Of a DNA stretch of 64,000 bases, positions 5,761 through 63,523 are shown one piece after another. Position 1 is the first letter of the stretch. Every line of letters begins with the position of its first letter. The notes under the pieces are model-generated. The model did not search any database and had not been told where the DNA came from. It saw only the letters and a list, made by a program, of their open reading frames with translations. Made by a program: the position numbers and the translations under genes. Source of the stretch: Patescibacteria group bacterium (GTDB taxonomy: Bacteria > Patescibacteriota > Patescibacteriia > PEXW01); assembly GCA_038065235.1 (NCBI GenBank), contig JBBTRK010000005.1:22389-86388 (forward strand), read 5' to 3'.

Positions 5761-6135
5761 ATGGTCGTTATTACCCCCCAGAGCCTTCGCAATAGCTTCC
5801 GCTACGCCCTCCGTGGGTTGCGGCACACATTCCGCACCCAGCAGAGCTTCCGCATTCAGGTCTTTGCGGCTGCGGTCGTCATCGTCGCCATGCTGCTGCT
5901 GCAGGTTAGCACCCGAGATACCGTCGTTCTCATTGTCATGGTGGCGGCAGTTCTGGTCCTGGAACTCATAAATACCGTCGTGGAACATCTAACCGATTTG
6001 GTAAGTGCCCGGCTTTCACCCGTCGCCCAAGCCGTGAAAGATGCTATGGCTGCCGCGGTTTTCGTCGCCTCACTCATTGCCCTGGTGGTTGGTTTACTCA
6101 TCTTCTGGCCCTACCTCGCATCGGCCGCCTTGTAA
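5761..6135 (+). CDS. dgkA: Diacylglycerol kinase / undecaprenol kinase family (DgkA).
   Basis: NSFRYALRGL, TQQSFRIQ, ELINTVVEHLTDLVS. Three TM helices and the typical ~120-aa size. ybeY-dgkA adjacency is common. Confidence 0.75.
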   Translation: MVVITPQSLRNSFRYALRGLRHTFRTQQSFRIQVFAAAVVIVAMLLLQVSTRDTVVLIVMVAAVLVLELINTVVEHLTDLVSARLSPVAQAVKDAMAAAVFVASLIALVVGLLIFWPYLASAAL

Positions 6136-45832: not shown

Positions 45833-45897
45833 GCCAACCCCGCTTGCCGACCGAAGCTCTAATGAGCGAAGGCTGGGGGCAGAGGGGTGGGGGAATT
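45833..45897. repeat. GC-rich palindromic repeat, family A, copy 1.
   Basis: ccaacccc...ttgccgaccgaagc...gcgaaggctgggggcagaggggtggggg. Confidence 0.7.
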
Positions 45898-46861: not shown

Positions 46862-48016
46862 ATGAATCCTATTCGTCGGTTTGGCGCTTTACTAGCGATC
46901 GTGGCTGCAGTAGCAGTCATGCTTTTCCCTTTGGCTAGCGTTCGAGCGCAAGCCAACGAAGAGTCGTTCAAAGCGAAAGTGGTGGAAGTCCTTGAGAACA
47001 AAACCACTCCAGAAGAAGAAGGTGCGGCCCTACCCCAGCAGAAGTTGCAGCTGCAAGGCCTTTCTGGTACCTGGAAAGGGAAGAGCATCATCTTCGACGG
47101 TACGAAGTATGAGGTCATGTCGGCGAGTAGGTACGAAGTCGGTGATGTCGTCATGGTTAATGTATCTGCAGACGCAGATGGGAATAAAGAATTCTTCGTC
47201 GTCGACTACGTCCGGCAGAACTCGCTCTACTGGCTCGCAGCACTTTTCGCATTAGTGGTTGTCGTTGTGGGCAGGCTCAAAGGCCTGCGCGCACTTGCCG
47301 TGCTGCTGCTGACTTTCGTGGTCATCCAGAAGTTCATCGTGCCAAGAATCCTCGCCGGTGATAACCCGCTCGTCATTAGCATTCTTGGTGCGTTGGTTAT
47401 CCTCGGCATTGCAATCTACATTACGGAAGGCTTCAAGCGTTCCTCTACTATTGCCATTGGCTCGGTCCTGCTCTCGCTCATTATCACCGGCCTGCTGTCT
47501 ATTGCGTTTACCGCCGCAGCGAAGCTCACGGGATTTGCAAGTGAAGAAGCCATTTACCTCAAAGGGCTCTCTGGGGTGGACATTAACGTGCATGGCTTAC
47601 TACTCGCCGGCATCATCATCGGTACCCTGGGGGTTTTGGATGATGTCATTATTTCTCAAGTGATGGTGGTAGAAGAATTGAAGCACGCAAACCGTAGCCT
47701 GACGAATCGCACCGTCTTCGCAAAAGCAATGCGGGTGGGCATTGGGCACATGAGCGCCTTGGTGAACACGCTCTTCCTCGCCTACGCCGGGGCATCGCTG
47801 CCACTCCTCTTGCTCTTCAGTGTTCGCGAGGAGCCGTTCCTGACGTTTAATCAGGTCATCAACAACGACATGATCGCTACAGAAATTGTCCGTACGCTCA
47901 CGGGCAGCATTGGCATTGTCCTCGCCGTACCGATTGCCACAGCACTAGCAGTAAAATTTATAAAAGCAAGTAAAGGTGGGGATACCGAGGTTGCCGACAG
48001 CACCCACCGGCACTAA
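46862..48016 (+). CDS. YibE/F-family membrane protein.
   Basis: Signal/TM, an extracellular domain, then multiple TMs with a GVLDDVIIS motif. Confidence 0.5.
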   Translation: MNPIRRFGALLAIVAAVAVMLFPLASVRAQANEESFKAKVVEVLENKTTPEEEGAALPQQKLQLQGLSGTWKGKSIIFDGTKYEVMSASRYEVGDVVMVNVSADADGNKEFFVVDYVRQNSLYWLAALFALVVVVVGRLKGLRALAVLLLTFVVIQKFIVPRILAGDNPLVISILGALVILGIAIYITEGFKRSSTIAIGSVLLSLIITGLLSIAFTAAAKLTGFASEEAIYLKGLSGVDINVHGLLLAGIIIGTLGVLDDVIISQVMVVEELKHANRSLTNRTVFAKAMRVGIGHMSALVNTLFLAYAGASLPLLLLFSVREEPFLTFNQVINNDMIATEIVRTLTGSIGIVLAVPIATALAVKFIKASKGGDTEVADSTHRH

Positions 48017-48047
48017 CTGAAACCTTTTTGGTTCGGGTTCCCCCCAA

Positions 48048-48127
48048 CCCCCTTGCCGACCGTAGCTTACTTGCCGTCCGAAGCTTTAGCGTAGGAAGGG
48101 GCGCAGGCTGGGGGCAGAGGGGTGGGT
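48048..48127. repeat. Family A repeat, copy 3.
   Basis: ttccccccaacccccttgccgaccgtagctt...ggctgggggcagaggggtggg. Confidence 0.7.
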
Positions 48128-48164
48128 TTTGGCGTTCACTTCTTCAGCCTGGTAGACTAGGGGC

Positions 48165-48655
48165 ATGACCCTATTGCCCGCGGAGACGATTAGGGTCAGA
48201 ATGTTATTTTTTTGGGTTATGTAAAAACCGCTCGGGGATTGAGCGGTTTTGAGTAATACGGTATTTGGGTTACTTTCACATTAGCCGGCGAAAGCTTGGA
48301 TGGCCGCAGCGCAGGCTGCAATAATGAGCATAATGGTTACGGAAATTGCAGAGCAAACAAAAAGGATCAGGGTTACGTGCAAGAGTTTTGCCCGATAGTA
48401 CTTCCCAGCGCTTTCGGCAGTAAAAAGTAAGGCCCAGCTTATCACGACTCCAGCGCAGCTAATGGGGATTAAGAACAGCCACGCCCACCAATAAGCAGAT
48501 ATAAAATTTATCAATGTTGCCTCCGTTGGTTTTCTCAAACCTACACCCCCAGCTTGAGTAGTCAATAGCTTGCACGTACAATACAGGTATGAACCTCATG
48601 TCATCTTTGAATAGTGAACAAAAACAGGCGGTTACGCATGCGTCCGGCCCGCTGT
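48165..48655. repeat. Left copy of a 491-bp perfect direct repeat.
   Basis: Identical to 53606-54096 (atgaccctattgcccgcggagacg ... gcgtccggcccgct). Confidence 0.9.
48281..48514 (-). CDS. Small 2-TM membrane protein, left duplicate copy. Probable TTG start after GGAGG; the ORF track extends it to 48565.
   Basis: MINFISAYWWAWLFLIPIS... A highly hydrophobic ~77 aa. Confidence 0.5.
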   Translation of the reverse strand: MINFISAYWWAWLFLIPISCAGVVISWALLFTAESAGKYYRAKLLHVTLILFVCSAISVTIMLIIAACAAAIQAFAG

Positions 48656-48671
48656 TAATCGTTGCTGGTGG
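48589..48671 (+). pseudogene. Duplicated 5' fragment of the UvrD-like helicase gene.
   Basis: MNLMSSLNSEQKQAVTHASGPLLIVAG is identical to the start of the 54031 gene, then diverges before Walker A. Confidence 0.75.
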
Positions 48672-48755
48672 AGAGATATTGTTAGGTAGGCCACGAAAGT
48701 CGACACACGAAAGTCGGCACTTGATATTCTGTATTACTTTGGGTAGAGTATCTCT

Positions 48756-49031
48756 ATGCTCTTACACGTAAATGTACCCCTCTCCATTTTCCGCGAAGGT
48801 AAGCGTTTTGTGGCCTTTACCCCAGCACTCGACCTCTCTACCTCTGGCAAGTCCCTTGCCGAGGCAAAGTCTCGTTTTTCCGAAGCCGTCCAGCTCTTCT
48901 TTGAAGAGTTAGAACGGATGGGGACAGTGGACGAAACACTTTCCGATCTCGGCTGGCACAAAGCCGAGCGGAAGTGGCAAGCGCCCCAGCCAATTTTTCA
49001 AGATACACAGCGGGTGCAAGTCGCGGTGTAA
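48756..49031 (+). CDS. hicB: HicB-family antitoxin (UPF0150 fold).
   Basis: FVAFTPALDLSTSGKSLAEAKSRFSEAVQLFFEELE matches the HicB N-domain pattern. Adjacent to hicA. Confidence 0.65.
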   Translation: MLLHVNVPLSIFREGKRFVAFTPALDLSTSGKSLAEAKSRFSEAVQLFFEELERMGTVDETLSDLGWHKAERKWQAPQPIFQDTQRVQVAV

Positions 49032-49035
49032 TTTT

Positions 49036-49266
49036 ATGCCGCGCGTCACGCCGGTACACTGGAAGCGCTTTGAGAAGTTTCTCCTCTACGTTGGTTGCAC
49101 GTTCGTTCGAGAGAAAGGTGACCACCGCATCTACACGCGGGATGGTTTATCGCGCCCGGTTGTTGTCCCCCGCGACACGCAGCTGCCGATATTCATTATA
49201 CGGAATAACTTACGCGTCCTTGGTATTTCGACGGACGACTACTTGCAAATTTTAGACCGCGTGTAG
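49036..49266 (+). CDS. hicA: HicA-family mRNA interferase toxin.
   Basis: WKRFEKFLLYVGCTFVREKGDHRIYTRDG...VVVP fits the K..L...GW...R.KGSH..F HicA pattern. Confidence 0.7.
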   Translation: MPRVTPVHWKRFEKFLLYVGCTFVREKGDHRIYTRDGLSRPVVVPRDTQLPIFIIRNNLRVLGISTDDYLQILDRV

Positions 49267-49352
49267 CAGGTTCCTCGTATGGCCCTATTGCCCATGCGCT
49301 AGGGGATTTGTTTATGCTTCCGAGCGCAGCATCTCCAAGCTGCGCTCTCTCC

Positions 49353-49392
49353 ATTCCCCCAACCCCCGCCCGCCCCAGGGGGCAGAGGGATT
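49353..49392. repeat. Family A repeat, short copy.
   Basis: cccccaacccccgcccgccccagggggcagaggg. Confidence 0.6.
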
Positions 49393-49481
49393 GACAAAGC
49401 GTAGTATTTCTAGTACATTGTATTGTTCCTAGAAAAAGTACAAAGTACCCTGACAATATTCACACAGAAAGGTGGAATTTC

Positions 49482-50468
49482 GTGCAAAAAGACCCAGTTG
49501 TTTACTTGGGCGAGGCATGGCGTGATGCACATGCCGTCGCGGTTCTGGATCATCAACGAGTCGTTGCAGAAAAGCAACTGGCTCGTACGCTCGTCCAAGA
49601 CGAAGATGTCATGGGCGAACGAGTTCTTTACGGTTGCACAGTGCAAGTGCCAGTTGGCATCGCACATGCAGATCGTGCTGTAGAATCTGCTTCTACCGAG
49701 TTTGAGCTTGTTCAAGCAGAGGCAGAACAGGCAAAAGCATTCGAATGCGAATGTCTGACGGAGACCGGTATAGCCCCGCTAGCAGTTGTACCGACGAATA
49801 TATGGGAACAGGTGACCAAGGCCTGGGGGTTGGTGAGGTTCGAATACCTGGAGCACTCCCGCGCCTACGCGCGTACTGTCAGCGAGCCGCCAATGCCTTC
49901 GGAGACTCGTAGAGCTGCGTGGATGTACTCCATTTCTGCTTGCATTGCACTGTGCATGGTCGCCATTCTGGCGATCGTTGCATCGGTATACTGGTGGGGT
50001 GCCGCATTCGTTGCTGTGTTTCTTTCCTGGTGTGCCTATGTTCTGGTTCGCGAGTACCGCACAAAGTCAAAAGCGCGTAGTGCATACGAGCAGCGTAAAC
50101 AGACACCGGGAGGGTTCGTTTCCGAGCTCTGGCCAGATGGGCATGACTATTACGAGTACCTCGTTCGAATGTCTGATTTCGGTGAGTTCTGCCAGCTTCC
50201 CGTAGCGTTTCCAAACGCACCCAAGAGCTTTGTTGAGAAGTTGCTTCGGTTAGAATCCAAGAGGGTACATTGCTGCATTGCCGCCGCCCCCGAAGCAATT
50301 CACGTCAAGCTTAGCGAAGCAAGACCGGCACCGAATGCCGATCCCATACTGTATATCAAGTCTCCATGCGGAGGCTTCGTAGCAGTCCTCGACCGCTTCG
50401 GTAACTTCGAAAATGAAGCGCGTGCCGTCCAGCAAGCGCAAGACATCACGGCACAGTACTACGCCTAA
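49482..50468 (+). CDS. Hypothetical protein with two central TM helices.
   Basis: GTG start after AAAGGTGG. Confidence 0.45.
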   Translation: MQKDPVVYLGEAWRDAHAVAVLDHQRVVAEKQLARTLVQDEDVMGERVLYGCTVQVPVGIAHADRAVESASTEFELVQAEAEQAKAFECECLTETGIAPLAVVPTNIWEQVTKAWGLVRFEYLEHSRAYARTVSEPPMPSETRRAAWMYSISACIALCMVAILAIVASVYWWGAAFVAVFLSWCAYVLVREYRTKSKARSAYEQRKQTPGGFVSELWPDGHDYYEYLVRMSDFGEFCQLPVAFPNAPKSFVEKLLRLESKRVHCCIAAAPEAIHVKLSEARPAPNADPILYIKSPCGGFVAVLDRFGNFENEARAVQQAQDITAQYYA

Positions 50469-50522
50469 CACCAACATTCGTTGTTTGATGACCAGCACCC
50501 TAAAAAGTGCTGGTTTTCTTTT

Positions 50523-50633
50523 TCCCCCAACCCCCTTGCCGTCCGTAGCTTTCTTGCCGACCGAAGCCTTGGCGAAGGTCGGAGCGTAGGACGGTGGCGT
50601 AGGTCGGTGCGCCCCGAGGGAGGGGGCAGCGGC
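50523..50633. repeat. Family A repeat, expanded copy with internal cgtaggWcgg sub-repeats.
   Basis: tttcccccaacccccttgccgtccgtagctttcttgccgaccgaagc...gagggagggggcagcggccc. Confidence 0.7.
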
Positions 50634-50678
50634 CCAGGTTGACGCCCACTTTCGGCTGGCGTACACTAGTTTTTACTT

Positions 50679-50951
50679 ATGTCTGCCCCAACTACTGAAT
50701 ACCTAGACCAGCGTTTTGAGCGCCTGGAATTAGCTACGCAATCTATTCTGACCGAAATGCGTCAGCGGTTTGCTGACCATGACGCCCGTTTCCAGCGTAT
50801 TGAAGCAACCTTAGCAACCCTTGTAGAATCCGTTGATCGTTTTGCAAAAATTTACACCGATCTAAACCAGGAAGTCGTGGTTATGCGGCAACAGCTTCGC
50901 GACGTGGAATCGCGTGTGGGGAAACTGGAGCTCAAGTTGAAGACAGCGTAA
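50679..50951 (+). CDS. Small coiled-coil hypothetical protein.
   Basis: ORF followed by a terminator hairpin. Confidence 0.45.
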   Translation: MSAPTTEYLDQRFERLELATQSILTEMRQRFADHDARFQRIEATLATLVESVDRFAKIYTDLNQEVVVMRQQLRDVESRVGKLELKLKTA

Positions 50952-51085
50952 TTATTCATTTTCTGGCAAACCCCGAGCATCCGCCCGGGGTTTTCTTTTT
51001 GCCGAATTTTCCCCCACCCCCAACCCCCGCGCCCCGGAACGTAAAACAAAAAGCCCAACTCTCGTGAGTTGGGCCAAAAGTAATT

Positions 51086-51313
51086 TTACTTTTTCGTATC
51101 GCCCTTCTTCGTGCATTCGACGCTAACCTTCAGCCGCCACTGTGCACCGCAGCGCGTGCAGGTAAAAGTCTTTTTGCCATCGACGAATACGACTGGCTTG
51201 CCACAGTGGCATGCCTGGGAGGGGATAGGCGTGAAGAGATGACCTATTTCCAGAATCAACCTCTCGCCGGCAGTTTGAATCACTTTTCTTAAAGAGCTAG
51301 TTTCGCTTGCCAT
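51086..51313 (-). CDS. Small zinc-ribbon protein.
   Basis: CHCG...CTRCG. Confidence 0.45.
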   Translation of the reverse strand: MASETSSLRKVIQTAGERLILEIGHLFTPIPSQACHCGKPVVFVDGKKTFTCTRCGAQWRLKVSVECTKKGDTKK

Positions 51314-51384
51314 GTAAATACCTCACTTTGTATGTGACTTTGTTTAACGGCTTACTGTAGCTAGGTAAGCTGCCTTTGTCAACC

Positions 51385-51466
51385 AAACCCCGCGCCCCCG
51401 CCCCAGGGGAGGGCAGAGGTCCGCCCGGCACGCCTACGGCGCAGCCGTGGCGGACGGGGGTGGGGG
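51385..51466. repeat. Family A repeat copy. A partial copy also lies at 51009-51037.
   Basis: caaaccccgcgcccccgccccaggggagggcagagg...gggggtgggggat. Confidence 0.65.
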
Positions 51467-51540
51467 ATAACCTGTTCACAAGCTAGCCCTTGCCGTTTGC
51501 TGTGGGAAAGCTAAAATAGTACTTATTTTAAAGTTATTGT

Positions 51541-52335
51541 ATGACTTCTGATAAAGAGTTTAATAAGGCAGCGCTGACAGCCGTAATATGCGCATTCATA
51601 ATCATGACATTTGTATTATTGTGGCGTTCTGGGGTGGATATAAGGTGGGCTGATGTACTAATTAATTTGTGTATAGCGTTACTTACAGCAATAATTTCAA
51701 TATTCGCCGCATTTGCTTTGTATAAGAGAGGGAAGAAAGCTGAGCAAAAAAGAGTGTTCGCAAACTTTAAACTGCTGTTTGCCGCATTTGTTTCAGAGAC
51801 TAATGACAATTTAGGTATACTAGTGTCATATCAAAAATCTGTAACGACAGATTCAATTTCGCATTTTAAAATGCTAACTGAAGTAATATCTAAAATAGTT
51901 ACTAACCATTTAATCTATAAACATTTAAGTGAGGAGCATGTAGTAGCAATTCGTTACGCACTTCATAAATACTTAGAGCTAAATAGCTATCTTGAAATTT
52001 TGATGCCGATTTTTTATGAGGGGAAAATTACTGAGCATTTAGTAAAACAGTTGCAGTTAGATGCAAAGAAAGTCAGGTATTATGCACTCGTTTTGCAGAA
52101 TTTAAACCAGGTTGCATTAAATGTGCTTGACGTTAGGTGGGTACCAAGTACAGATACTAAGTTGTTATATATGGATTTGTTGAAAAATGAGCCTAAGGAA
52201 GACGATCTTGAAAAATTTATTGATAAGTTGAAAAGCCATATAGAAATTGAGAAAAATATTAGCGCTCAACAAAAAGCGATTTCTAAAAAGAACTATTTAG
52301 CCGCAATGGAGAGGTACGAGAAAAAGTTAGAGTGA
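51541..52335 (+). CDS. AT-rich hypothetical protein with an N-terminal 2-TM anchor.
   Basis: Strongly AT-rich relative to the flanks. Confidence 0.55.
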   Translation: MTSDKEFNKAALTAVICAFIIMTFVLLWRSGVDIRWADVLINLCIALLTAIISIFAAFALYKRGKKAEQKRVFANFKLLFAAFVSETNDNLGILVSYQKSVTTDSISHFKMLTEVISKIVTNHLIYKHLSEEHVVAIRYALHKYLELNSYLEILMPIFYEGKITEHLVKQLQLDAKKVRYYALVLQNLNQVALNVLDVRWVPSTDTKLLYMDLLKNEPKEDDLEKFIDKLKSHIEIEKNISAQQKAISKKNYLAAMERYEKKLE

Positions 52336-52433
52336 ATCACGATACCTCACCTCAAGGGGCACATCAGTTACACCCGGCCATATGGTTTATTGTAAAGAGC
52401 TTAGAATATGAGCTCACATAACGCATAGATATT

Positions 52434-53180
52434 ATGAAGAAAGGGACAAAAATTTCGATACGTCTCAACCCCTACGTTTTTTTATATTCTGAAGCAAAGT
52501 TCTTTTTAGAGCACAGCAGTGTTAGTAGAGACTCTAAAAATGTGACCGATCTTATTAAGCGTTCAAAATTTGCAAGAACGAGCATAATTCTGTTCCAAGC
52601 TACGGTGGAATCAATACTTCGGTGGCTTCTTTTTAATGGCGCAATAAAAGGTATTTCAATGAGTTTAAAGAAAAAAATCGACCGAATGGATTTCAAGACC
52701 CGATTGGTTGAAATCACGAACGCTAATTGTAAAAAAATAAAGGTGTCTAATTTTCAGAAATACAATCACTTACTAGAAATGGCTGACCTAAGAAACAGCA
52801 TAATTCATCAAGAACATCTTCAAATGCAAGGCACCGTGGAAACTTTCGATAAAGTAAACAATAAAATAAAGATCCACCTAATTTCACGGAGTGAATTTTA
52901 TACTCATTCAAAACTCCAGAAGAATGTCAGACTCGTTGACTATTTTGATGCAATAAAAAGTAACGAAATTGTAGACGAGTTTGTTGATTGGTTGAAAATC
53001 AATCTTAAACGCCCAGAAGACTTTATCAACACGTTTAGCATTGTTGCCCATAATATAAAATCTAGAAGCCGGAAATTAAAAATCGGTTCAAGTTTACAGA
53101 TTGAAATTAAAGGTAGAGGAGAAGATCTCATCGATATGGCTAGCTATTGGCCAAATACAAAAATGACTTTTAGATTGTAA
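52434..53180 (+). CDS. AT-rich hypothetical protein with an RNxxxH (HEPN-like) motif.
   Basis: EMADLRNSIIHQEH. AT-rich. Confidence 0.55.
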   Translation: MKKGTKISIRLNPYVFLYSEAKFFLEHSSVSRDSKNVTDLIKRSKFARTSIILFQATVESILRWLLFNGAIKGISMSLKKKIDRMDFKTRLVEITNANCKKIKVSNFQKYNHLLEMADLRNSIIHQEHLQMQGTVETFDKVNNKIKIHLISRSEFYTHSKLQKNVRLVDYFDAIKSNEIVDEFVDWLKINLKRPEDFINTFSIVAHNIKSRSRKLKIGSSLQIEIKGRGEDLIDMASYWPNTKMTFRL

Positions 53181-53319
53181 TCTCACACCCTATTTTTTGG
53201 CATCTCCTATCCTGCCTGGTAGACTAGGTACATGACCCTATTGCCCCAAGAAAAATAGTTTTTGTTTGAAAAAAAGCCACCCGTAGAGAGTGGCTTGCAT
53301 TTTGCAACGATGTTTTTGC

Positions 53320-53532
53320 TCATGTCGCCGTGAGGGCGTGTACTCCTGCAATTATCAGTAGTACTACTGAGCTTGCACCGACCAGAAAGAACATAGAAAA
53401 AAGAAAACCCAGGAATCTTTGGTATTTTATACTCATCAGCGAGATGACGCTGAAGTACATTCCCAGTACGCCCAGTAACCCAATGATTCCCGTGAGAATC
53501 CAGACCCACCAAAGCGCTGTTATTAAATCCAC
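53320..53532 (-). CDS. Small 2-TM membrane protein, paralogous to the 48281/53723 genes.
   Basis: MDLITALWWVWILTG... AGGAGG RBS. The upstream region is similar to the paralog's upstream region. Confidence 0.55.
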   Translation of the reverse strand: MDLITALWWVWILTGIIGLLGVLGMYFSVISLMSIKYQRFLGFLFSMFFLVGASSVVLLIIAGVHALTAT

Positions 53533-53605
53533 ATTTTCCTCCTTGTGTTTTCTTCAACCTACACCAGCCGCTTGAGTAGTCAATGGCTAGCACCTGCAAT
53601 GAGGC

Positions 53606-54096
53606 TATGACCCTATTGCCCGCGGAGACGATTAGGGTCAGAATGTTATTTTTTTGGGTTATGTAAAAACCGCTCGGGGATTGAGCGGTTTTGAGTAATA
53701 CGGTATTTGGGTTACTTTCACATTAGCCGGCGAAAGCTTGGATGGCCGCAGCGCAGGCTGCAATAATGAGCATAATGGTTACGGAAATTGCAGAGCAAAC
53801 AAAAAGGATCAGGGTTACGTGCAAGAGTTTTGCCCGATAGTACTTCCCAGCGCTTTCGGCAGTAAAAAGTAAGGCCCAGCTTATCACGACTCCAGCGCAG
53901 CTAATGGGGATTAAGAACAGCCACGCCCACCAATAAGCAGATATAAAATTTATCAATGTTGCCTCCGTTGGTTTTCTCAAACCTACACCCCCAGCTTGAG
54001 TAGTCAATAGCTTGCACGTACAATACAGGTATGAACCTCATGTCATCTTTGAATAGTGAACAAAAACAGGCGGTTACGCATGCGTCCGGCCCGCTC
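53606..54096. repeat. Right copy of the 491-bp direct repeat. It carries the genuine 5' end of the helicase gene.
   Basis: See the left copy. Confidence 0.9.
53723..53956 (-). CDS. Small 2-TM membrane protein, right duplicate copy.
   Basis: Identical to the 48281..48514 copy. Confidence 0.5.
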   Translation of the reverse strand: MINFISAYWWAWLFLIPISCAGVVISWALLFTAESAGKYYRAKLLHVTLILFVCSAISVTIMLIIAACAAAIQAFAG

Positions 54097-57000
54097 CTTA
54101 TCGTTGCCGGCGCGGGGACGGGCAAGACCACCGTCGTCACCCAGCGCATTGCCTGGCTCATTGCCGAAAAGAAGATTAAGCCTGACCACATCCTCGGGTT
54201 AACGTTCACGGACAAAGCCGCCGGGGAACTGGAAGAGCGCGTGGACAAGCTGCTGCCCATGGGCTACGTGGATTTGTGGGTGAGCACGTTCCACAGCTTC
54301 TGCGAGCGCATCCTGCGGGATCACGCCCTGGACATTGGCCTTAGCCCCGACTTCACCTTGCTGGATGAGACGGACCAGGCCATTCTGATGCGCGAGCACC
54401 TGGAGCAATTCGACTTGAGCTACTACCGGCCGTTGGGCAACCCGACGAAGTTCGTGTCCAGCCTCATCAAGCACTTCAGCCGGTGCAAGGATGAAGCAAT
54501 TCGGCCAGAGGAATATCTGAAATACGCAGAAAAGTTACGGCTGGATTTGGATCAGGTGCATGGGCGCAAAAAGCATTCGCAGGATGAAGACAAGGATGAA
54601 ATCGTTGAAGTAGACAGGATAAACGAAATTGCGAACGCGTACCACACCTACCAGCAGCTCCTGTTCCAGAAGGGGAGCCTGGACTTCGGCGACCTCATCA
54701 CGCAGACGCTCTATCTCTTCCAGCAGCGGCCCAAGATTCTGGAGCGCTACCGCAAGCAGTTCGAGTACATCCTGGTGGACGAATTCCAGGACACGAACTG
54801 GGCGCAGTACGAGCTGGTGAAGTTGCTCGCTGCCCCGCAGAACAACCTGACCGTGGTGGGGGATGATGACCAGAGTATCTACAAGTTCCGCGGCGCCAGC
54901 GTGGCCAACATTCTGGCGTTCAAGACGGACTTCCCCAAAGCCAAAGAAGTGGTGCTCACCCAGAACTACCGCAGCACGCAAAACATTCTGGACTTGGCCT
55001 ACGACTTCATCCAGGCGAACAACCCGAATAGGTTAGAGGTGCAGCTTGGTAATACACCCCCCCTTACCCCCCCTTCGAAAGGGGGGGAGGGTGAGGGAGC
55101 CAAGAAGCGTGGGCGACGGAAAAATTCCGCACCCCAATTATCTCCCTCTTCACAAGGGGGAGAGGGAGGGGGTCGAGACAAGGCCTTTGCGATTAGCAAA
55201 AAGCTTTTTGCTCAAGAGCAAGGCACCGGTACAATAGAGTATTCCATTGCACCGATTCTGGAGCAGGAAGCCACTGGCGCAGTGGAGAAAATCCTGGAGC
55301 TCAAGAAGAAGAAAGGCACCAGCTACAACGATTTTGCCATTCTGGTGCGCGCCAATGATTCGGCGCAGCCCTTCATCCAGCGCCTGAAAGCCGCGGACGT
55401 GCCGTTCCAGTTCGTGGCCACGGCCGGGCTGTACCGCCAACCCATTGTGCTGGACATCCTCAACTACCTCAAGCTGCTAGATAACTTCCACGAGAGCGCC
55501 AGCTTGTACCGCATGCTCACCCTCCCATCCCTGTGCATTCCCTTGCAGGATGTGATGAGCATGATGGCTACAGCGCGGCGGGAGACCAAGTCGCTGTACG
55601 AAGTGTCCAAGAACGTCCGTGCGCTCACCGGGATGCAACCCGAGACAATCGCGGCTGTGGAAAAACTTCATGGGTGGCTCGAAGCGCACGGCCAACTGGC
55701 GCGCACGCAGCCCGTGGGTGAAGTGGCCTTGAAGTTCTTGGAAGACTCGGGTTTGATGAAAGACCTCACCAGCTCCACAGACGCTGACCACTTGGAAGTG
55801 GTGAACTACATGAACCAGCTGTTCCAAGTGTTCCAGAGCTTCCAGATGCGGCACGAAGAACCGACGGTGAAGAATTTTTTGCACGAATTAGCTTTCGCCC
55901 AAGACGCGGGCGATTCTGGAAGTCTGCGGCCGCCCGAATGGGAGCAAGGCCCAGAGGCTGTGAAGCTCATGACCATTCACAGCGCCAAAGGCTTGGAATT
56001 CCCGTACGTGTTCATTGCGAACTTGGTTGATAAGAGATTCCCCACAATCGAGCGCCGCGACGCCATTGAACTACCCGATGATCTCGTCAGAGAGAAACTT
56101 CCCGAAGGGGACTGGCACTTGCAAGAAGAGCGACGCCTCATGTATGTGGCCATCACCCGCGCCAAGCAAGGCGTGTTCTTCACGGCCGCGGAAGACTACG
56201 GCGGCACGCGCAAGAAAAAGCCCTCGCGCTTCATTGAAGAGCTTGGCCTCAAAGCCAAACCGTTCAAATTAAAGGGTGGATTGTTGGATAAGCAAAAGGC
56301 GCCTGCACGTCAAGAAAATGACGCCGAATTACTGCGTAAAGCACTGCCCCCGTACTTCAGCTTCACGCAGTTGAAGGCGTTTGAGAAATGCCCTAAGCAG
56401 TACAAGTACGCCCACTTGCTGAAGATCCCGGTGCCAGGGCATGCCACGTTGAGCTTTGGCCAAACCATTCATAACACCTTGCTCAACTTCTTCAAGCTGG
56501 CACGCGAGCGCGGCATGGCCGGTCAGGCTGATTTGTTCGGCAAGAAAGACCAGGCCACCAGCGGCCCGCCTGTTACCTGGGCCGAGCTGCAGCAAATTTA
56601 CCAAGCCAACTGGCAAGACATGTGGTACAGCAGCATGGCGCAGAAGACGGAGTACAAGCACCGCGGCGTAAAGTTCCTCAAAAACTTCTACGATTCTCTC
56701 CCAACACCGTGGCCACAACCAACCGAGCTGGAAAAAGGTTTTACCATTGTCATCAACGGCCATAAAGTAAAAGGCAAGATTGACCGCATTGACCCCAGCA
56801 CTGGCGGCATAGAAATTATTGACTACAAGACCAGCGAGAAACCGCCAGCAGAAAACAAAGCCGATTTGGAACAGCTGCACATTTACGCTATGGCCGCGCG
56901 CGAAGCGCTTGGACTCAATCCGGTGAAGCTCACCTTCATTTACCTGGCCGCCGAAAAACCCTTTAGCTACCCAATTGACGAAAAGGCCATTGAGAAAACC

Positions 57001-57123
57001 CGCGCCGAGATAGGGGAGACCATTGAGGCAATTTTGAAAAGTGACTTTGTTGCCACGCCGAGCAAGTTCACCTGCGTATCCTGCGATTTTCGAAATATCT
57101 GCGAGGATAGGTATAGAGGGTAA
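54031..57123 (+). CDS. UvrD/PcrA-like superfamily-1 helicase fused to a C-terminal RecB-family (PD-(D/E)xK, Cys-cluster) nuclease domain.
   Basis: Walker A AGAGTGKT, DEFQDTN, and the helicase motifs. C-terminal IIDYKTS and CVSCDFRNICEDR. Confidence 0.9.
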   Translation: MNLMSSLNSEQKQAVTHASGPLLIVAGAGTGKTTVVTQRIAWLIAEKKIKPDHILGLTFTDKAAGELEERVDKLLPMGYVDLWVSTFHSFCERILRDHALDIGLSPDFTLLDETDQAILMREHLEQFDLSYYRPLGNPTKFVSSLIKHFSRCKDEAIRPEEYLKYAEKLRLDLDQVHGRKKHSQDEDKDEIVEVDRINEIANAYHTYQQLLFQKGSLDFGDLITQTLYLFQQRPKILERYRKQFEYILVDEFQDTNWAQYELVKLLAAPQNNLTVVGDDDQSIYKFRGASVANILAFKTDFPKAKEVVLTQNYRSTQNILDLAYDFIQANNPNRLEVQLGNTPPLTPPSKGGEGEGAKKRGRRKNSAPQLSPSSQGGEGGGRDKAFAISKKLFAQEQGTGTIEYSIAPILEQEATGAVEKILELKKKKGTSYNDFAILVRANDSAQPFIQRLKAADVPFQFVATAGLYRQPIVLDILNYLKLLDNFHESASLYRMLTLPSLCIPLQDVMSMMATARRETKSLYEVSKNVRALTGMQPETIAAVEKLHGWLEAHGQLARTQPVGEVALKFLEDSGLMKDLTSSTDADHLEVVNYMNQLFQVFQSFQMRHEEPTVKNFLHELAFAQDAGDSGSLRPPEWEQGPEAVKLMTIHSAKGLEFPYVFIANLVDKRFPTIERRDAIELPDDLVREKLPEGDWHLQEERRLMYVAITRAKQGVFFTAAEDYGGTRKKKPSRFIEELGLKAKPFKLKGGLLDKQKAPARQENDAELLRKALPPYFSFTQLKAFEKCPKQYKYAHLLKIPVPGHATLSFGQTIHNTLLNFFKLARERGMAGQADLFGKKDQATSGPPVTWAELQQIYQANWQDMWYSSMAQKTEYKHRGVKFLKNFYDSLPTPWPQPTELEKGFTIVINGHKVKGKIDRIDPSTGGIEIIDYKTSEKPPAENKADLEQLHIYAMAAREALGLNPVKLTFIYLAAEKPFSYPIDEKAIEKTRAEIGETIEAILKSDFVATPSKFTCVSCDFRNICEDRYRG
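55055..55172 (+). repeat. In-frame GC-rich palindromic insertion within the helicase ORF.
   Basis: CCCCCCC-TTCGAAA-GGGGGGG and tccctct...agaggga hairpins. Encodes the low-complexity stretch NTPPLTPPSKGGEGEGAKKRGRRKNSAPQLSPSSQGGEGGG. Confidence 0.6.
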
Positions 57124-61168: not shown

Positions 61169-63523
61169 ATGAAGCTCCCGCTCACCTGGCTCAAAGACTT
61201 CGTCACCGTCCGTACTAGCCCAGAGAAACTGGCGCAGCTGCTGACGTTGTCGGGATCGGAAGTGGAGAAAATTGAACGTGGGCCAGAGGTGAGCGGCATC
61301 ATCGTTGGTTTGGTAGAAGAGGTGAAGCAGCACCCGAACGCCGATCGTTTGAAAGTCTGTAAGGTTCGAGTTGAGCCAGATGGAGAGCTGCGGACAATCG
61401 TCTGCGGCGCGCCGAACGTTGCCGTTGGTCAGAAAGTTCCGGTTGCTTTGCCAGGCACGGTTTTGCCGAACGGCGTGGAGCTGGGGAAGGCGACGATTCG
61501 CGGGGTGGAATCCAGCGGCATGATTTGTGCAGCAGATGAGCTCGCCTTAGGCAACGACCACAGCGGTATCATTGTCCTCGATCCGAAAGCAGAAGTCGGC
61601 ACACCGGCAGCGAAGTGGCTGGGCGCGGCAGACACGACGTTCGACGTGAAGGTCACACCAAACCGCGGGGACTGCCTCTCCATTCGCGGCCTGGCCCGGG
61701 AAGTTGCCATCCTCACCAAGCAGAAGGTGAAAGTTGTCGAACCGATGCTTGTGGAGGGAAAATCACGCAACACCGTTAAAGTGAAAATCCAAGATACCAA
61801 AGGCTGCAGCCAGTACGTGGCGCGGCTCGTGGAAGGCATCACCATAAAGCCGTCGCCATTGGAAGTGCAGGAACGTCTGCGCAGCGTTGGGGTGCGCCCC
61901 ATCAACGCCGTGGTGGATGCAACCAACTACGTCATGTTGGAGCTCGGCCAACCCTTGCACGCATTCGATGCGGACACGGTGAAGCAGATTGTCGTCCGCA
62001 GCGCCAAGCCCAACGAGCAGCTCGTCACCTTGGATGGCGAGAAGCGCAATCTCCTAACGGCCGACCTCGTCATTGCAGACAAGCAGAAAGCTATTGCGCT
62101 GGCTGGCGTTATGGGCGGCCAAGCCACTGAAGTGAGCGAGCACACGACCCGCGTCATTATTGAGTCAGCACGCTTCGATCCCATCCGCGTGCGACTCACG
62201 GCGCAGCGTTTGCGTTTGCGCTCCGAAGCCTCGAGCCGGTTCGAGAAGGGGATAGACCCCAATCTCGCAATCGAAGCAGCTGACCGGTGCGCGGCGTACA
62301 TTGCGCAATGGGCAGACGGTGTCGTGGCGAAAGGCCGCATTGTCGCTGGGAAGAAACCATCAGCGCCAAAAGCCATCAGTCTACCGCTCGCAGAAGTGGA
62401 GCGACTCCTCGGCACACGCATTGCCGCAACCAAAGTGAAAGCGACACTCGTCAGCTTGGGGTGCCTCGTATCGGGTACGAAAACTGCGCTGCGCGTCATC
62501 CCGCCATCGTGGCGCTTGGATCTTTGTATTCCAGCAGACCTTGTAGAAGAGGTTGGTCGGCTCATGGACTACAACACCCTCACACCAACGTTGCCGCGAA
62601 TCCCGCAGCGATCACCCGAACCATCCAGCACGTTCACGTTCACCTCGACTGTTCGGCACCGCTTGGTGGCTGCTGGCCTTACCGAGACACCAACGTACAG
62701 CTTCTACAGCAAGCAGCTCGCGGCAGACTTCGATTTAGCCGACCAGCCGCACTCGGAACTCGCAAACCCGCTCAACCCCGACCAAGCGTTGCTGCGCCGC
62801 TCGCTCATGCCGCAGCTCCTCACCGTGGCAGGCAAGCAGAGTGCCACGCGCGATACGCTGCGCATCTTCGAAGTTGGCCGCGCGTTCTGGCCAGCGAACA
62901 AGACTATGCCCGAGGAGCGCACCATGCTGGGCATCGTGGACGTACGTAAAGTCGGCCTGCCCGCCAGCGCCTCGGCGCAGCCGTGGCAGGCGGGTGACCC
63001 CTTCCTTGCCGTGAAAGGCGTGGTGGAAGCACTGTGCCGAAGCCTCGGCTTGCATGACGTGCGCTACCACGGTTCAACCTCAACCGCAGCGCGCATCACC
63101 GTGGGCACGGAAGCCATTGGCATCATCGGCAGCGTGCGGCAGAAGTACGCTGACGCGGTGAAGCTGCGCAAGCCTGCAGCGTTCGCTGAGATCGACCTGT
63201 CGCTGCTCATGGAGCAGCCGCGACACGTGACGAAAGCACAGCCGCTTCCCGTCTACCCGTCGGTGGAGCGCGACCTCTCATTCGCCCTGCCCCACCCTGT
63301 AGCGCATGCCGAGCTCATACGGGAAGTGCGCAGCGTGGACCCGCTCGTGCTGAAGGTGCAGGGGATTGACCGGTTCAGCCTGCCCGGCGGCAAGGTGAGT
63401 ATCACCCTCCGCGTGACGTTCCAGAGCCCGGGAACCACGTTGACCAGCGATGACGTGCAAGGTATCGTAGAGAGGATCGCCCAGCGCATGGACGAGGTAT
63501 TCTCCGCTGAATTCCGCAGGTAA
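61169..63523 (+). CDS. pheT: Phenylalanine--tRNA ligase beta subunit.
   Basis: N-terminal tRNA-binding domain [12 protein letters not shown]. ~784 aa. Confidence 0.95.

Follow-up and report, generated by a model that had tools for sequence, protein, structure and literature searches.

Why should a small gene for a hydrophobic protein lie beside one rearranged junction after another? The question is raised by a 64,000-nucleotide stretch of a Patescibacteria (Kerfeldbacteria-like) chromosome, here called the window, in which an initial annotation had described three small genes for proteins with two transmembrane (TM) segments, one immediately upstream of each junction, and had suggested that they were holin-like, toxin-like or simply passengers. 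All three were recovered as intact minus-strand ORFs: A (48281-48514, 77 amino acids, two TM segments, WWAW, with a TTG start 5 nt after GGAGG), C (53320-53532, 70 amino acids, WWVW, with a GTG start 5 nt after AGGAGG) and B (53723-53956), which is identical to A. The proposal that two copies are identical through duplication was borne out, both A and B being contained in an exact 489-bp direct repeat (48165-48653 and 53607-54095). ORF C is the diverged paralog it was taken for, with 26% identity to A in a pairwise protein comparison (E 9e-5) and E 2.6e-11 against other members of the family, and the upstream likeness also held, as an 80-nt intergenic segment (D2) is 78% identical between A and C. 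A second conserved block (D4), 79% identical, lies 3' of each small ORF. This family likeness is beyond chance, because a profile search of 1.84e9 proteins matched the relative P0003 at E 4.6e-8 and a 32-mer of D4 occurs twice in the window against an expectation of 0.

The small ORFs are real genes. An alignment of six alleles showed invariant M1, I5, A7, W9, W10, W12 and L63, confirming the N-terminal WW(A/V)W motif, and every allele keeps a length of 69-77 amino acids, a C-terminal LLxIxxG.HxL pattern despite wide divergence, and a ribosome-binding site of the GGAGG type, 5-6 nt before the start (6/6). The predicted two-TM topology was supported both by hydropathy, in all three alleles tested, and by AlphaFold2, which gave two helices (residues 3-36 and 39-76, pLDDT 74); the architecture is that of a membrane hairpin of 69-77 amino acids in which the aromatic WW(A/V)W belt opens the first helix. 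The loop between the helices carries K/R residues and therefore both termini are predicted to face outward. Between P0001 and P0002 there are 12 synonymous and 12 nonsynonymous codon changes, giving a dN/dS of about 0.3 as a rough estimate from counts. The family is tiny, with 3 relatives only in an exhaustive profile search of 1.84 billion representative proteins; a word-based search gave no match, no Pfam, NCBIfam, PHROG or PADLOC family matched, and no relative was encoded on any viral contig searched. It is thus a lineage-restricted family of helical-hairpin membrane proteins, carried by about five lineages, so that comparative power is low.

What these genes have in common is their neighbour. 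The whole arrangement is anchored by a core gene, an intact UvrD-type helicase with a fused PD-(D/E)XK nuclease (54031..57123, plus strand, 1030 amino acids; Pfam-type domains UvrD-helicase at 8.5e-85, UvrD_C and PDDEXK_1). Of 600 stretches that matched its pattern, 583 were confirmed as relatives, and the helicase loci kept were nearly all labelled as, or consistent with, Patescibacteria. A search of the contexts of the homologs found every one divergent from this same helicase gene, usually across a back-to-back promoter, at 76-130 nt from the helicase start in loci L086, L087 and L006 and at 1.7 kb in L081-85, where inserted modules lie between. The three compact loci represent the undisturbed state, in which the small gene is the divergent upstream neighbour of the helicase and shares its promoter region. 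The contrary view, that the homologs are ubiquitous core genes adjacent to the helicase in all relatives, was right about the linkage but not about ubiquity: the small ORF is absent from L001 and L004 (88% best-segment helicase identity) and from L002 and L003 (72-73%), the remaining four loci of close relatives whose sequence extends upstream of the helicase, and from every more distant Patescibacteria locus that was retrieved.

The space between ORF A and the helicase start that faces it (48515..48588) is predicted, from a promoter scan and by eye, to hold two back-to-back promoters: TTGAGT-17-TACAAT on the plus strand (scan, 48554-48582), followed after 6 nt by the helicase ATG, and TTGACT-16-TAGGTT on the minus strand (by eye), followed by the ribosome-binding site of the small ORF. 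This divergent region is conserved in unit C (53533..53621, ending in ATGACCCTATTGCCC) and in L086, and its minus-strand part alone is conserved in L006, L087 and L081. The copy called active lies beside the intact helicase (53957..54030; scan 53996-54024), and the helicase promoter looks like a leaderless-type promoter-plus-start module, the -10 box being exactly 6 nt before the ATG, which would imply leaderless expression of the helicase. On the other side of ORF A, a hairpin read from the sequence (AAAACCGCTC-GGGGATT-GAGCGGTTTT, 48224..48250; in copy B 53666-53692) is likely to be a bidirectional intrinsic terminator; it is absent from the list of a simple hairpin scan, which did list the terminator-like hairpin 3' of C (53274..53296, minus strand). 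A similar hairpin was read by eye 3' of the ORF in L086, and L006, L081 and L087 carry sequence homologous to it. These promoters, leaderless starts and terminators are putative, called at the level of consensus.

By alignment, each junction is a broken-off 5' end of the helicase gene. D4(1) (48127..48179, plus strand) is a relic helicase promoter (TTGGCG, an 18-nt spacer, TGG-TAGACT, then 6 nt) with the codons ATG ACC CTA TTG CCC (MTLLP), whose ATG at 48165 also marks the left end of the 489-bp repeat; the block recurs in L001, L004 and L086. D4(2) (53194..53246, plus strand) has TTGGCA-17-TAGACT with TG and the same five codons, and was detected by the promoter scan, as were the active promoters. 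Base by base, D4 lines up with the true helicase starts of L081 and L004, with a common pattern of -35 box, 17-18 nt, -10 box, 6 nt and ATG (A/C)CC CTx xTG CCx. Broken-off starts of promoter plus 5 codons number three in the window, and a longer relic (48589..48675, plus strand) keeps 28 codons (MNLMSSLNSEQKQAVTHASGPLLIVAGG), the last 22 nt of which have diverged from the resident helicase gene; it runs on into a 60-amino-acid chimeric ORF ending at 48771. The 22 nt beyond the 489-bp repeat are 15/22 identical and encode the same helicase residues. A junction beside each small gene, as had been claimed, is found for A and C but not on the helicase side of B, which adjoins the intact helicase gene. 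Five D4 relics stop at the same nucleotide, after TTG(C/T)CC, and the break at codon 28-29 is found in two lineages; a single ancestral event with later allele exchange and a site-specific mechanism fit this regularity equally well.

The promoter and 28 codons are followed by 4.5 kb of cargo (48676..53193, from ORF and domain calls), comprising a degenerate REP-like remnant, a putative antitoxin (48756-49031) with a HicA toxin (49036-49266), a 328-amino-acid membrane ORF, a coiled-coil ORF, a REP-like repeat (50521-50603), a Zn-finger ORF (51086-51313, minus strand) and a low-GC pair (51541-52335 and 52434-53180). The GC content shifts sharply inside the cargo, to 38% against 54% for the window, and no integrase or replication-protein domain was found in it with Pfam, NCBIfam or PADLOC. 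The region is a recombination hotspot with toxin-antitoxin cargo.

The same pattern recurs in a second, unrelated lineage. Loci L081-83 have an 8-codon relic beside the small ORF and also a 29-codon relic, behind which come an antitoxin-like gene with Fic and then the intact helicase, and these loci and the window are the only ones with a second helicase 5' fragment among the 87 loci and the window compared. The content between D4 and the helicase is ORF A or C in the window, the small ORF P0004 in L086, 87 nt in L001 and a called ORF of 107 amino acids (114-codon open frame) in L004. Between unit A and L086, the closest relative, identity is 97% for D4, 84% for the promoter segment and, for the helicase, 92% over the first 300 nt and 87% over 496 codons (24% divergence at 4-fold sites), whereas the ORF body with its terminator is 57% identical in nucleotides, against 53 +/- 1.4% for shuffled sequence. 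The ORF body is hypervariable, at 57% versus 84-97% in its flanks.

Our preferred reading, to which we give a probability of about 0.6, is that the small gene hitch-hikes with the helicase start module as this is displaced by successive recombination, and has no causal role in the junctions. It would be found at them because it is the immediate upstream neighbour of a helicase whose start was repeatedly copied or displaced; the passenger option of the initial annotation is favoured by this tie. The 5' end of the helicase would be a recombination hotspot in the clade, where incoming or ectopic DNA with its own helicase promoter and start joins the 5' coding region of the resident gene behind codon 5, 8 or 28-29, and where homology with either the body of the helicase or an older relic supplies the other join. 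The old promoter, first codons and attached small gene would be shifted upstream as an orphan while the helicase remains intact. Repeated rounds could then have built the array of a D4 relic, ORF A with promoter and 28 codons, the cargo, a second D4 relic, ORF C with promoter and 5 codons, and ORF B with promoter and helicase. The exact 489-bp repeat would be the latest event, its left join a homeologous crossover within roughly the first 22 helicase codons and its right join, that of unit C to unit B, lying within the 8-nt ATGACCCT (53607-53614) common to the helicase start and the D4 relic, and we infer that the mechanism is homology-facilitated or microhomology-mediated.

Orphan arrays arising by sequential displacement have been described for T6SS and Rhs loci, as orphan immunity-gene arrays of the Vibrio cholerae T6SS and as C-terminal displacement in Rhs/CDI, with homology-facilitated illegitimate recombination as the proposed mechanism (Kirchberger et al. 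2017, PMC5361080, which cites Jackson et al. 2009). The array in the window looks like a 5' mirror image of such C-terminal displacement, with the conserved gene body as homology anchor, the old variable end displaced by one incoming module after another, orphaned gene ends left in a row with a small gene beside each, heterogeneous arrays of divergent alleles rather than simple duplications, and the same kind of recombination proposed. It differs in that the 5' end (promoter and first 5-29 codons) is displaced upstream, not a 3' toxin domain downstream, in that the anchor is a housekeeping helicase and not a polymorphic toxin, in that the small gene is divergently transcribed and without a known partner toxin, and in that the orphan pieces are just 15-87 nt of coding sequence.

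Other explanations were weighed against this displacement. The small protein might be the membrane-damaging toxin of a type I toxin-antitoxin-like module, in which D4, a co-opted relic start, would drive an RNA of about 90 nt, convergent with the toxin mRNA, whose 3' end it would overlap at the bidirectional terminator that the two share. Convergent transcription with a shared bidirectional terminator is the arrangement of the type I loci par/fst (fst/RNAII) and bsrG/SR4, and the likeness extends to the conserved promoter that points at the 3' end of a small hydrophobic ORF, with a hairpin terminator between them. D4 faces the 3' ends of A, B, C and P0004 with the hairpin between, and seems promoter-like under selection, its -35 box, extended -10 box (TGGTAGACT) and ATG being conserved in five contexts while the spacer varies; intact orphan copies are kept, and toxin-antitoxin cargo is close by. 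We nevertheless consider this unlikely, as the small ORF lacks a downstream D4-type promoter in L006, L087 and L081, half of the family's lineages, D4 occurs without the small ORF in L001 and L004, a longer protein of 69-77 amino acids with two TM helices and a strong ribosome-binding site is atypical of type I toxins, the predicted RNA overlap is the terminator hairpin alone (about 35 nt), and there was no Rfam match. The notion that the small ORFs are non-coding, being chance open frames upstream of the helicase, draws on their shortness, the lack of a database family and a body whose nucleotides are essentially unalignable between close relatives; it is scarcely credible given the frame, ribosome-binding site, start position and terminal motifs kept by six alleles, the two-TM hydropathy of those tested and the excess of synonymous changes between P0001 and P0002.

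Genomic islands such as those with dusA-specific integrases insert themselves at the 5' end of their target gene, which they also restore, and by similar logic a mobile promoter cassette (terminator, small ORF, divergent promoter and new helicase start) could be inserted after helicase codon 5 by a recombinase encoded elsewhere, with a second site at the Walker-A codons 28-29. As in dusA-type islands, the insert supplies a replacement promoter and 5' codons, the target is intact and the original 5' end is left as a far-side relic; the break after ATGACCCTATTGCCC is identical in five relics, that at codon 28-29 is independent in the window and L081 with differing cargo, and the A/B unit occurs twice at 100% identity. 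Such site-specific insertion is improbable, however, since neither the cargo proteins nor the neighbouring genes scanned (41.7-63.5 kb) showed an integrase or transposase domain, the Y1 transposase-like gene of L081 has no counterpart in the window, the cassette is not bounded by terminal inverted or direct repeats, and the third break, that of L081 at 8 codons, is unlike the others; the identical breaks can be explained by a single ancestral event and later homologous exchange of alleles, with D4 and helicase as flanks. Inserts down to about 1 kb (L081, the Fic module), several break points and relics stacked in tandem are further differences from dusA-type islands. The 489-bp repeat lies in a probable metagenome assembly, and so a mixture of co-assembled strains, or a 5,442-bp circle sharing 489 bp with the chromosome and threaded into it (5.44 kb), might mean that the repeat and the tandem C-B arrangement are not on one chromosome. 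The 100% identity of the repeat, the GC shift in the cargo and the precise geometry that a circle taken in through one crossover would leave favour this, but we think it quite improbable. Each of the two novel junctions, of the 28-codon relic with the cargo and of the unit C promoter with the ATGACCCTATTGCCC cassette, has to be present in a real molecule; a k-mer misjoin cannot arise from 8 nt of microhomology; relics stacked in this way are seen in L081, L082, L083 and L085, which are four different assemblies/samples; and the cargo yielded no replication gene.

As for what the small gene does, the holin-like option is not supported. Class II holins and pinholins share its small size and two TM helices but are N-in/C-in, the opposite of the N-out/C-out topology predicted here, and the small gene is chromosomal, beside a core gene. 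Its surroundings are not those of a phage and hold neither endolysin nor other lysis genes, PHROG and Pfam gave no holin match, no viral contig among those searched encodes it, and its sequence lacks a charged C-terminal tail. For a toxin-like role the evidence points neither way. The small gene may rather encode a strain-variable accessory membrane protein, immunity- or exclusion-like in its role rather than a lytic toxin.

Three intact minus-strand ORFs, reported by the initial annotation as a family of small two-TM proteins, were borne out by the ORF listing and by direct reading: ORF A (48281-48514; 77 amino acids, TTG start with GGAGG 5 nt before it), ORF C (53320-53532; 70 amino acids, GTG start with AGGAGG 5 nt before it) and ORF B (53723-53956), which has the same sequence as A. 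The identity of A and B was attributed to a duplication, and both do lie within an exact 489-bp direct repeat (48165-48653 and 53607-54095), beyond which 15 of the next 22 nt are identical and the helicase residues LLIVAG are still encoded in both copies. ORF C is indeed a diverged paralog (26% identity to A, E 9e-5), and the resemblance seen upstream of the copies was also found, as the non-coding blocks flanking A and C, which we call D2 (the intergenic segment upstream of the small ORF) and D4 (the block at its 3′ side), are 78-79% identical.

Two transmembrane helices were predicted for these proteins both by hydropathy, which gave two hydrophobic spans with Lys and Arg only in the loop between them, and by AlphaFold2 on a six-member alignment, which gave helices at residues 3-36 and 39-76 (pLDDT 74). 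The proteins are 69-77 amino acids long with a GRAVY of 1.5-1.9, and the positive-inside rule predicts a cytoplasmic loop with both termini facing outward (N-out/C-out). Residues M1, I5, A7, W9, W10, W12 and L63 are invariant in the six alleles. Between two family members, P0001 and P0002, 12 codon changes are synonymous and 12 nonsynonymous, a synonymous excess expected of a translated gene, and we conclude that the small ORFs are real genes encoding a membrane hairpin of very restricted lineage range. An exhaustive search of 1.84 billion representative proteins with a three-member profile gave three matches only (P0002, P0003 and P0004), a word-indexed homolog search with ORF A gave no candidates, and the small proteins of the window were absent, by exact look-up, from a collection of 15 billion proteins. 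They could be placed in no family of Pfam, NCBIfam, PHROG or PADLOC, even at permissive thresholds, and a Foldseek comparison of the AlphaFold2 model with the PDB found generic helical hairpins only (best E 1.6). A metagenome scan with the six-member alignment gave 85 pattern matches and no confirmed relative; confirmation used the divergent first sequence (A), and this, we believe, accounts for the failure to recover the known relatives.

Holin-like or toxin-like functions had been suggested for the small proteins, as well as a role as simple passengers. Class II holins and pinholins are encoded in phage lysis cassettes by the endolysin gene, and have two TM helices in an N-in/C-in arrangement with a charged cytoplasmic C-terminal tail. 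The N-out/C-out orientation predicted here argues against a holin, as does a C-terminus that bears no charge, or in some alleles only that of a single His. The neighbouring genes (helicase, YibE/F, HicA and ORFs of unknown function) offer no lysis-cassette context; PHROG found no lysis or other phage function in the neighbours tested, with only weak matches for a coiled-coil ORF (E at least 0.0015). None of the six family members had a Pfam match up to E 5 or a PHROG match, and none of 42 pattern matches in a viral contig scan with the family alignment was confirmed, so that no viral contig was found to encode a relative. Type I toxins are small and hydrophobic, typically of fewer than 60 amino acids with one TM helix, and an antisense or convergent RNA overlaps the toxin mRNA. 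It is conceivable that the small ORF is such a toxin in the units that bear D4, where, in the window and in the related locus L086, the conserved D4 promoter points towards the ORF from its 3′ side, across a hairpin; however, a D4-type facing promoter was not seen in the relatives L006, L087 and L081, and there this reading fails.

The window is a chromosomal segment with genes for an ABC transporter, DUF975, AdoMet decarboxylase, YibE/F, a NUDIX protein and PheS/PheT, and downstream of copy B it encodes a 1030-amino-acid UvrD-type helicase fused to a PD-(D/E)XK nuclease. When species-representative genomes were searched with the helicase, 583 of 600 stretches that matched the pattern proved to be relatives, and nearly all the loci kept were labelled as, or resembled, Patescibacteria, which makes the helicase a core gene of the phylum; the closest helicases (72-91% best-segment identity) are in Kerfeldbacteria-like MAGs. 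Within the window helicase, a low-complexity insert rich in Gly, Glu, Pro and Ser (PPLTPPSKGGEGEGAKKRGRRKNSAPQLSPSSQGGEGGG; approximately 54930-55290, codons ~300-420) has 71-75% nucleotide identity to L086, compared with ~90% elsewhere. The small ORF is divergent from the helicase gene and 76-130 nt from it in L086, L087 and L006, and lies 1.7 kb from it, with other modules between, in L081-L085 (five assemblies, one a 1-Mb contig). It is absent from L001 and L004 (helicase 88% best segment), from L002 and L003 (72-73%) and from all other loci fetched. The possibility that its homologs are ubiquitous genes linked to a core helicase therefore holds in part: the linkage was found wherever the gene exists, but the gene is not ubiquitous.

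The D4 block is present at 48127-48179 and 53194-53246, 3′ of ORFs A and C respectively, and also in L001, L004 and L086, and consists of a -35 box (TTGGCx), 17-18 nt, TGG-TAGACT, 6 nt and then ATG ACC CTA TTG CCC. It matches genuine helicase starts base for base, namely those of L081 (TGGTAGACT...ATGCCCCTGTTGCCA) and L004 (ATGACCCTTCTGCCA-TCTCTGAAT), and so D4 is an orphaned helicase promoter with the first five codons. The -10 box stands exactly 6 nt before the ATG in all relics and all true helicase starts, a spacing which suggests that the helicase is expressed from a leaderless mRNA; such a design would explain how promoter and start act as one module of ~45 nt. Along the window, D4(1) is followed by a terminator and ORF A (minus strand), a back-to-back promoter with 28 helicase codons (48589-48672), 4.5 kb of cargo, D4(2), a terminator and ORF C (minus strand), a promoter with ATGACCCTATTGCCC, a terminator and ORF B (minus strand), and a promoter with the intact helicase. 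In all, the window carries four relic helicase 5′ ends, one with 28 codons and the other three with 5 each, all of which align with true starts, and the join from C to B falls within an 8-nt sequence (ATGACCCT) common to helicase starts (compare ATGACCCTCATG in L086) and the D4 relic.

Several further features of these starts were observed. The partner gene of HicA in the cargo (48721-48758) has the layout TTGATA-17-TAGAGT-ATCTCT-ATG, again with 6 nt between the -10 box and the ATG and without a Shine-Dalgarno sequence, and recurrence of this design suggests that leaderless mRNAs are common in the organism; the small ORFs, unlike the helicase and HicA-partner starts, have strong GGAGG sites. 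At 48554-48571 and 53996-54013 the -35 boxes of the divergent promoters abut, giving a near-palindrome (CTTGAGT|AGTCAAT) which is invariant in units A, B and C and in L086 and could be an operator for a dimeric regulator. In L001 (8887-8969) the ATG of the D4 relic opens a 25-codon upstream ORF that ends in a TAG stop 2 nt short of the current helicase ATG, and here D4 may still drive the helicase gene, perhaps with coupled translation. The idea of a palindromic core at the D4/helicase start was dropped as the dyad was too weak, and a 5′ stem sequestering the relic AUG (5-7 bp of complementarity per allele, by eye) was statistically unconvincing. A metagenome scan with the D4 DNA pattern gave 45 loci, of which only two were true relatives, both duplicates of other loci in the comparison (L112 of L001 and L092 of L082).

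Comparable stacks, built from other parts, recur independently in relatives. In L081-L083 a first unit comprises the small ORF on the opposite strand, a promoter and 8 helicase codons (MPLLETLN, the true start of L006 and L087), and a second comprises a terminator, an unrelated 96-amino-acid ORF on the opposite strand, a promoter and 29 helicase codons ending in LIVAGAG; an antitoxin-like gene and a Fic gene follow, and then a D4-type promoter with the intact helicase. The two-TM ORF and the 96-amino-acid ORF in these orphan modules are open and have ribosome-binding sites. Among 87 loci and the window, a second helicase 5′ fragment was found only in L081-L083 and the window. The Fic-domain gene (L081 4319-5393, minus strand; also in L082, L083 and L085) has an upstream partner of 64-68 amino acids, and this module was inserted after helicase codon 29 (LIVAGAG, the start of Walker A), in parallel with the window junction at codon 28. 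In these loci the 87-nt helicase 5′ segment is duplicated (93% identity, 6 differences in 87 nt, by eye).

L086 represents the single-unit state, in the order D4, small ORF, promoter, helicase, while L001 has just 87 nt between D4 and the helicase, and L004 has there a called ORF of 107 amino acids inside a 114-codon open frame. When window unit A was compared with L086, nucleotide identity was 97% for the D4 core, 84% for the WW codons, RBS and promoter, 92% for the first 300 nt of the helicase and 87% for 496 helicase codons (4-fold sites 24% diverged), but only 57% for the body of the small ORF and its terminator, against 53 ± 1.4% in a shuffled control for the ORF body. Between conserved flanks, then, the body of the ORF has either been exchanged or diverged by far more than neutral change would predict, and the locus has the character of an idiomorphic cassette with D4 and the helicase as its borders.

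The cargo itself includes a HicA_toxin domain (49036-49266; 38.2 bits, compared to a Pfam cut-off of 27), preceded by a 91-amino-acid ORF with no Pfam match, an antitoxin by position only, as well as membrane and coiled-coil ORFs, a Zn-finger ORF and a gene pair at 35-38% GC. No recombinase or replication domain was found in the cargo ORFs scanned. The HicA module with its partner ORF (48708-49266) is 93% identical to L001 5862-6420, where REP-like repeats flank it 2.5 kb upstream of the helicase, and thus the same cassette occupies different island positions in the two genomes. These GC-rich palindromic intergenic repeats (core CCCTTGCCGACCG.AGC...GCGAAGGTCGG...GGGGCAGAGGGGTGGG) occur at 45861-45891, 48038-48126 and 50521-50603 in the window and at 5789-5874 and 6438-6503 in L001; they bracket gene cassettes, such as the HicA module in L001, and a degenerate copy opens the window cargo directly after the truncated helicase. 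The Zn-finger ORF (51086-51313, minus strand; 75 amino acids, SQACHCG...FTCTRCG) has weak matches to the TNB domain of Cas12f1/TnpB (Pfam E 0.022) and to Cas12u1 in PADLOC (E 0.0058), and may represent what is left of the C-terminal part of a TnpB gene. The low-GC pair (51541-53180; adjacent ORFs of 264 and 248 amino acids in a genome of 54% GC) has weak matches only (PycTM, E 0.0023; BT_3535-like, E 0.0021) and has the look of a two-gene module of recent acquisition, perhaps for defence. A GC-rich direct repeat of 41 nt and 76% identity (GGTCCGCCCGGCACGCC...GCAGCCGTGGCGGACGGG), at 51418-51458 in the cargo and 62954-62994 inside pheT, may be due to chance. An Rfam search of 47900-54300 gave one sub-threshold chance match and no family.

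Several kinds of mobile element were considered. An island of the dusA-integrase type finds no support, as the cargo ORFs and neighbouring genes that were scanned include no tyrosine or serine recombinase, and the L081 insert contains an antitoxin-like gene and Fic only. In integrons each cassette bears its own attC site, and an intI integrase accompanies attI; here no inverted repeats bound the units, no integrase was found, and the REP-like palindromes (D3/D7), which fold weakly (z 0.7 to -2.3), flank genes other than the small ORFs. Transposition of the IS200/IS605 kind makes no gene-end duplications, and a Y1 transposase-like gene was seen near L081; that gene (L081 7949-8542, minus strand), with a faint Y1_Tnp (IS200/RAYT-like) match, lies in the same variable island, between DUF975 and the helicase, and has no window counterpart.

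The passenger reading is the one that the data favour: the small gene naturally sits beside the helicase promoter/start module, facing the other way, and travels with it. Its repeated association with the junctions, noted initially, is real, but in place of a causal role we see hitch-hiking with the helicase start. Each displacement of the promoter/start module would carry the small gene along, leaving behind a relic of promoter and first codons with its divergent neighbour. As the helicase must stay intact, only insertions supplying a new promoter and start would survive, and hence every surviving insert would end in a helicase start. The nearest known parallel is the successive displacement seen in Rhs, CDI and T6SS loci, where a conserved gene body anchors incoming DNA while old variable ends pile up with small immunity genes (PMC5361080). 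The present locus resembles such arrays in having a conserved anchor gene beside strings of orphaned gene-end fragments (four in the window; two, of 8 and 29 codons, in L081) and heterogeneous divergent alleles (as between A and C) in place of simple copies, with the small genes intact. It differs in that the displaced end is the 5′ rather than the 3′ end, the anchor is a housekeeping helicase and no toxin domain adjoins the small ORFs, and for the last two reasons we claim only the array-forming logic and not membership of a toxin/immunity system. Displacement arrays at the 3′ ends of polymorphic toxin genes are well described; to our knowledge, and from a limited literature check, 5′-end displacement at a housekeeping helicase, or in the little-studied Patescibacteria, has no previous description.

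The shared break points, with one common to five D4 relics and another at codon 28-29 in two lineages, could result from one ancestral event followed by allele exchange, or from a site-specific recombinase acting in trans, although none was found among the ORFs scanned. A mixture of strains, or a 5.44-kb circle, could lie behind the exact 489-bp repeat in the assembly; even so, some real molecules must contain the novel junctions, and comparable stacks are present in four L081-type assemblies that are independent of one another. A more elaborate proposal, which we think improbable, is that the helicase start is a landing pad at which a selected D4 would serve both as portable homology, by which new cassettes of promoter and small gene are captured, and as a convergent-RNA promoter controlling a hypervariable two-helix membrane protein, allowing integrase-free exchange of toxin/immunity or exclusion-like cassettes. 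For the small protein we favour a strain-variable accessory membrane protein.

The initial interpretation is thus partly supported, as to the passenger and not the holin, for a phenomenon in a rare lineage where the depth of evidence is modest. Annotators should take the truncated helicase ORFs of this region, and its duplicated small ORFs, as stacks of relics and not as independent mobile elements; an orphan, hypervariable family of two-helix membrane proteins with no database home is now flagged, and the natural promoter/start modules described (-10, 6 nt, ATG) form a compact collection. If the landing-pad proposal were true, the locus would be a strain-specific 5′ counterpart of Rhs/T6SS arrays on a core DNA-repair gene in Patescibacteria. 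On the passenger reading, the small genes recur as a side effect of an unusual form of genome plasticity, the sequential 5′-end displacement of an intact core gene.
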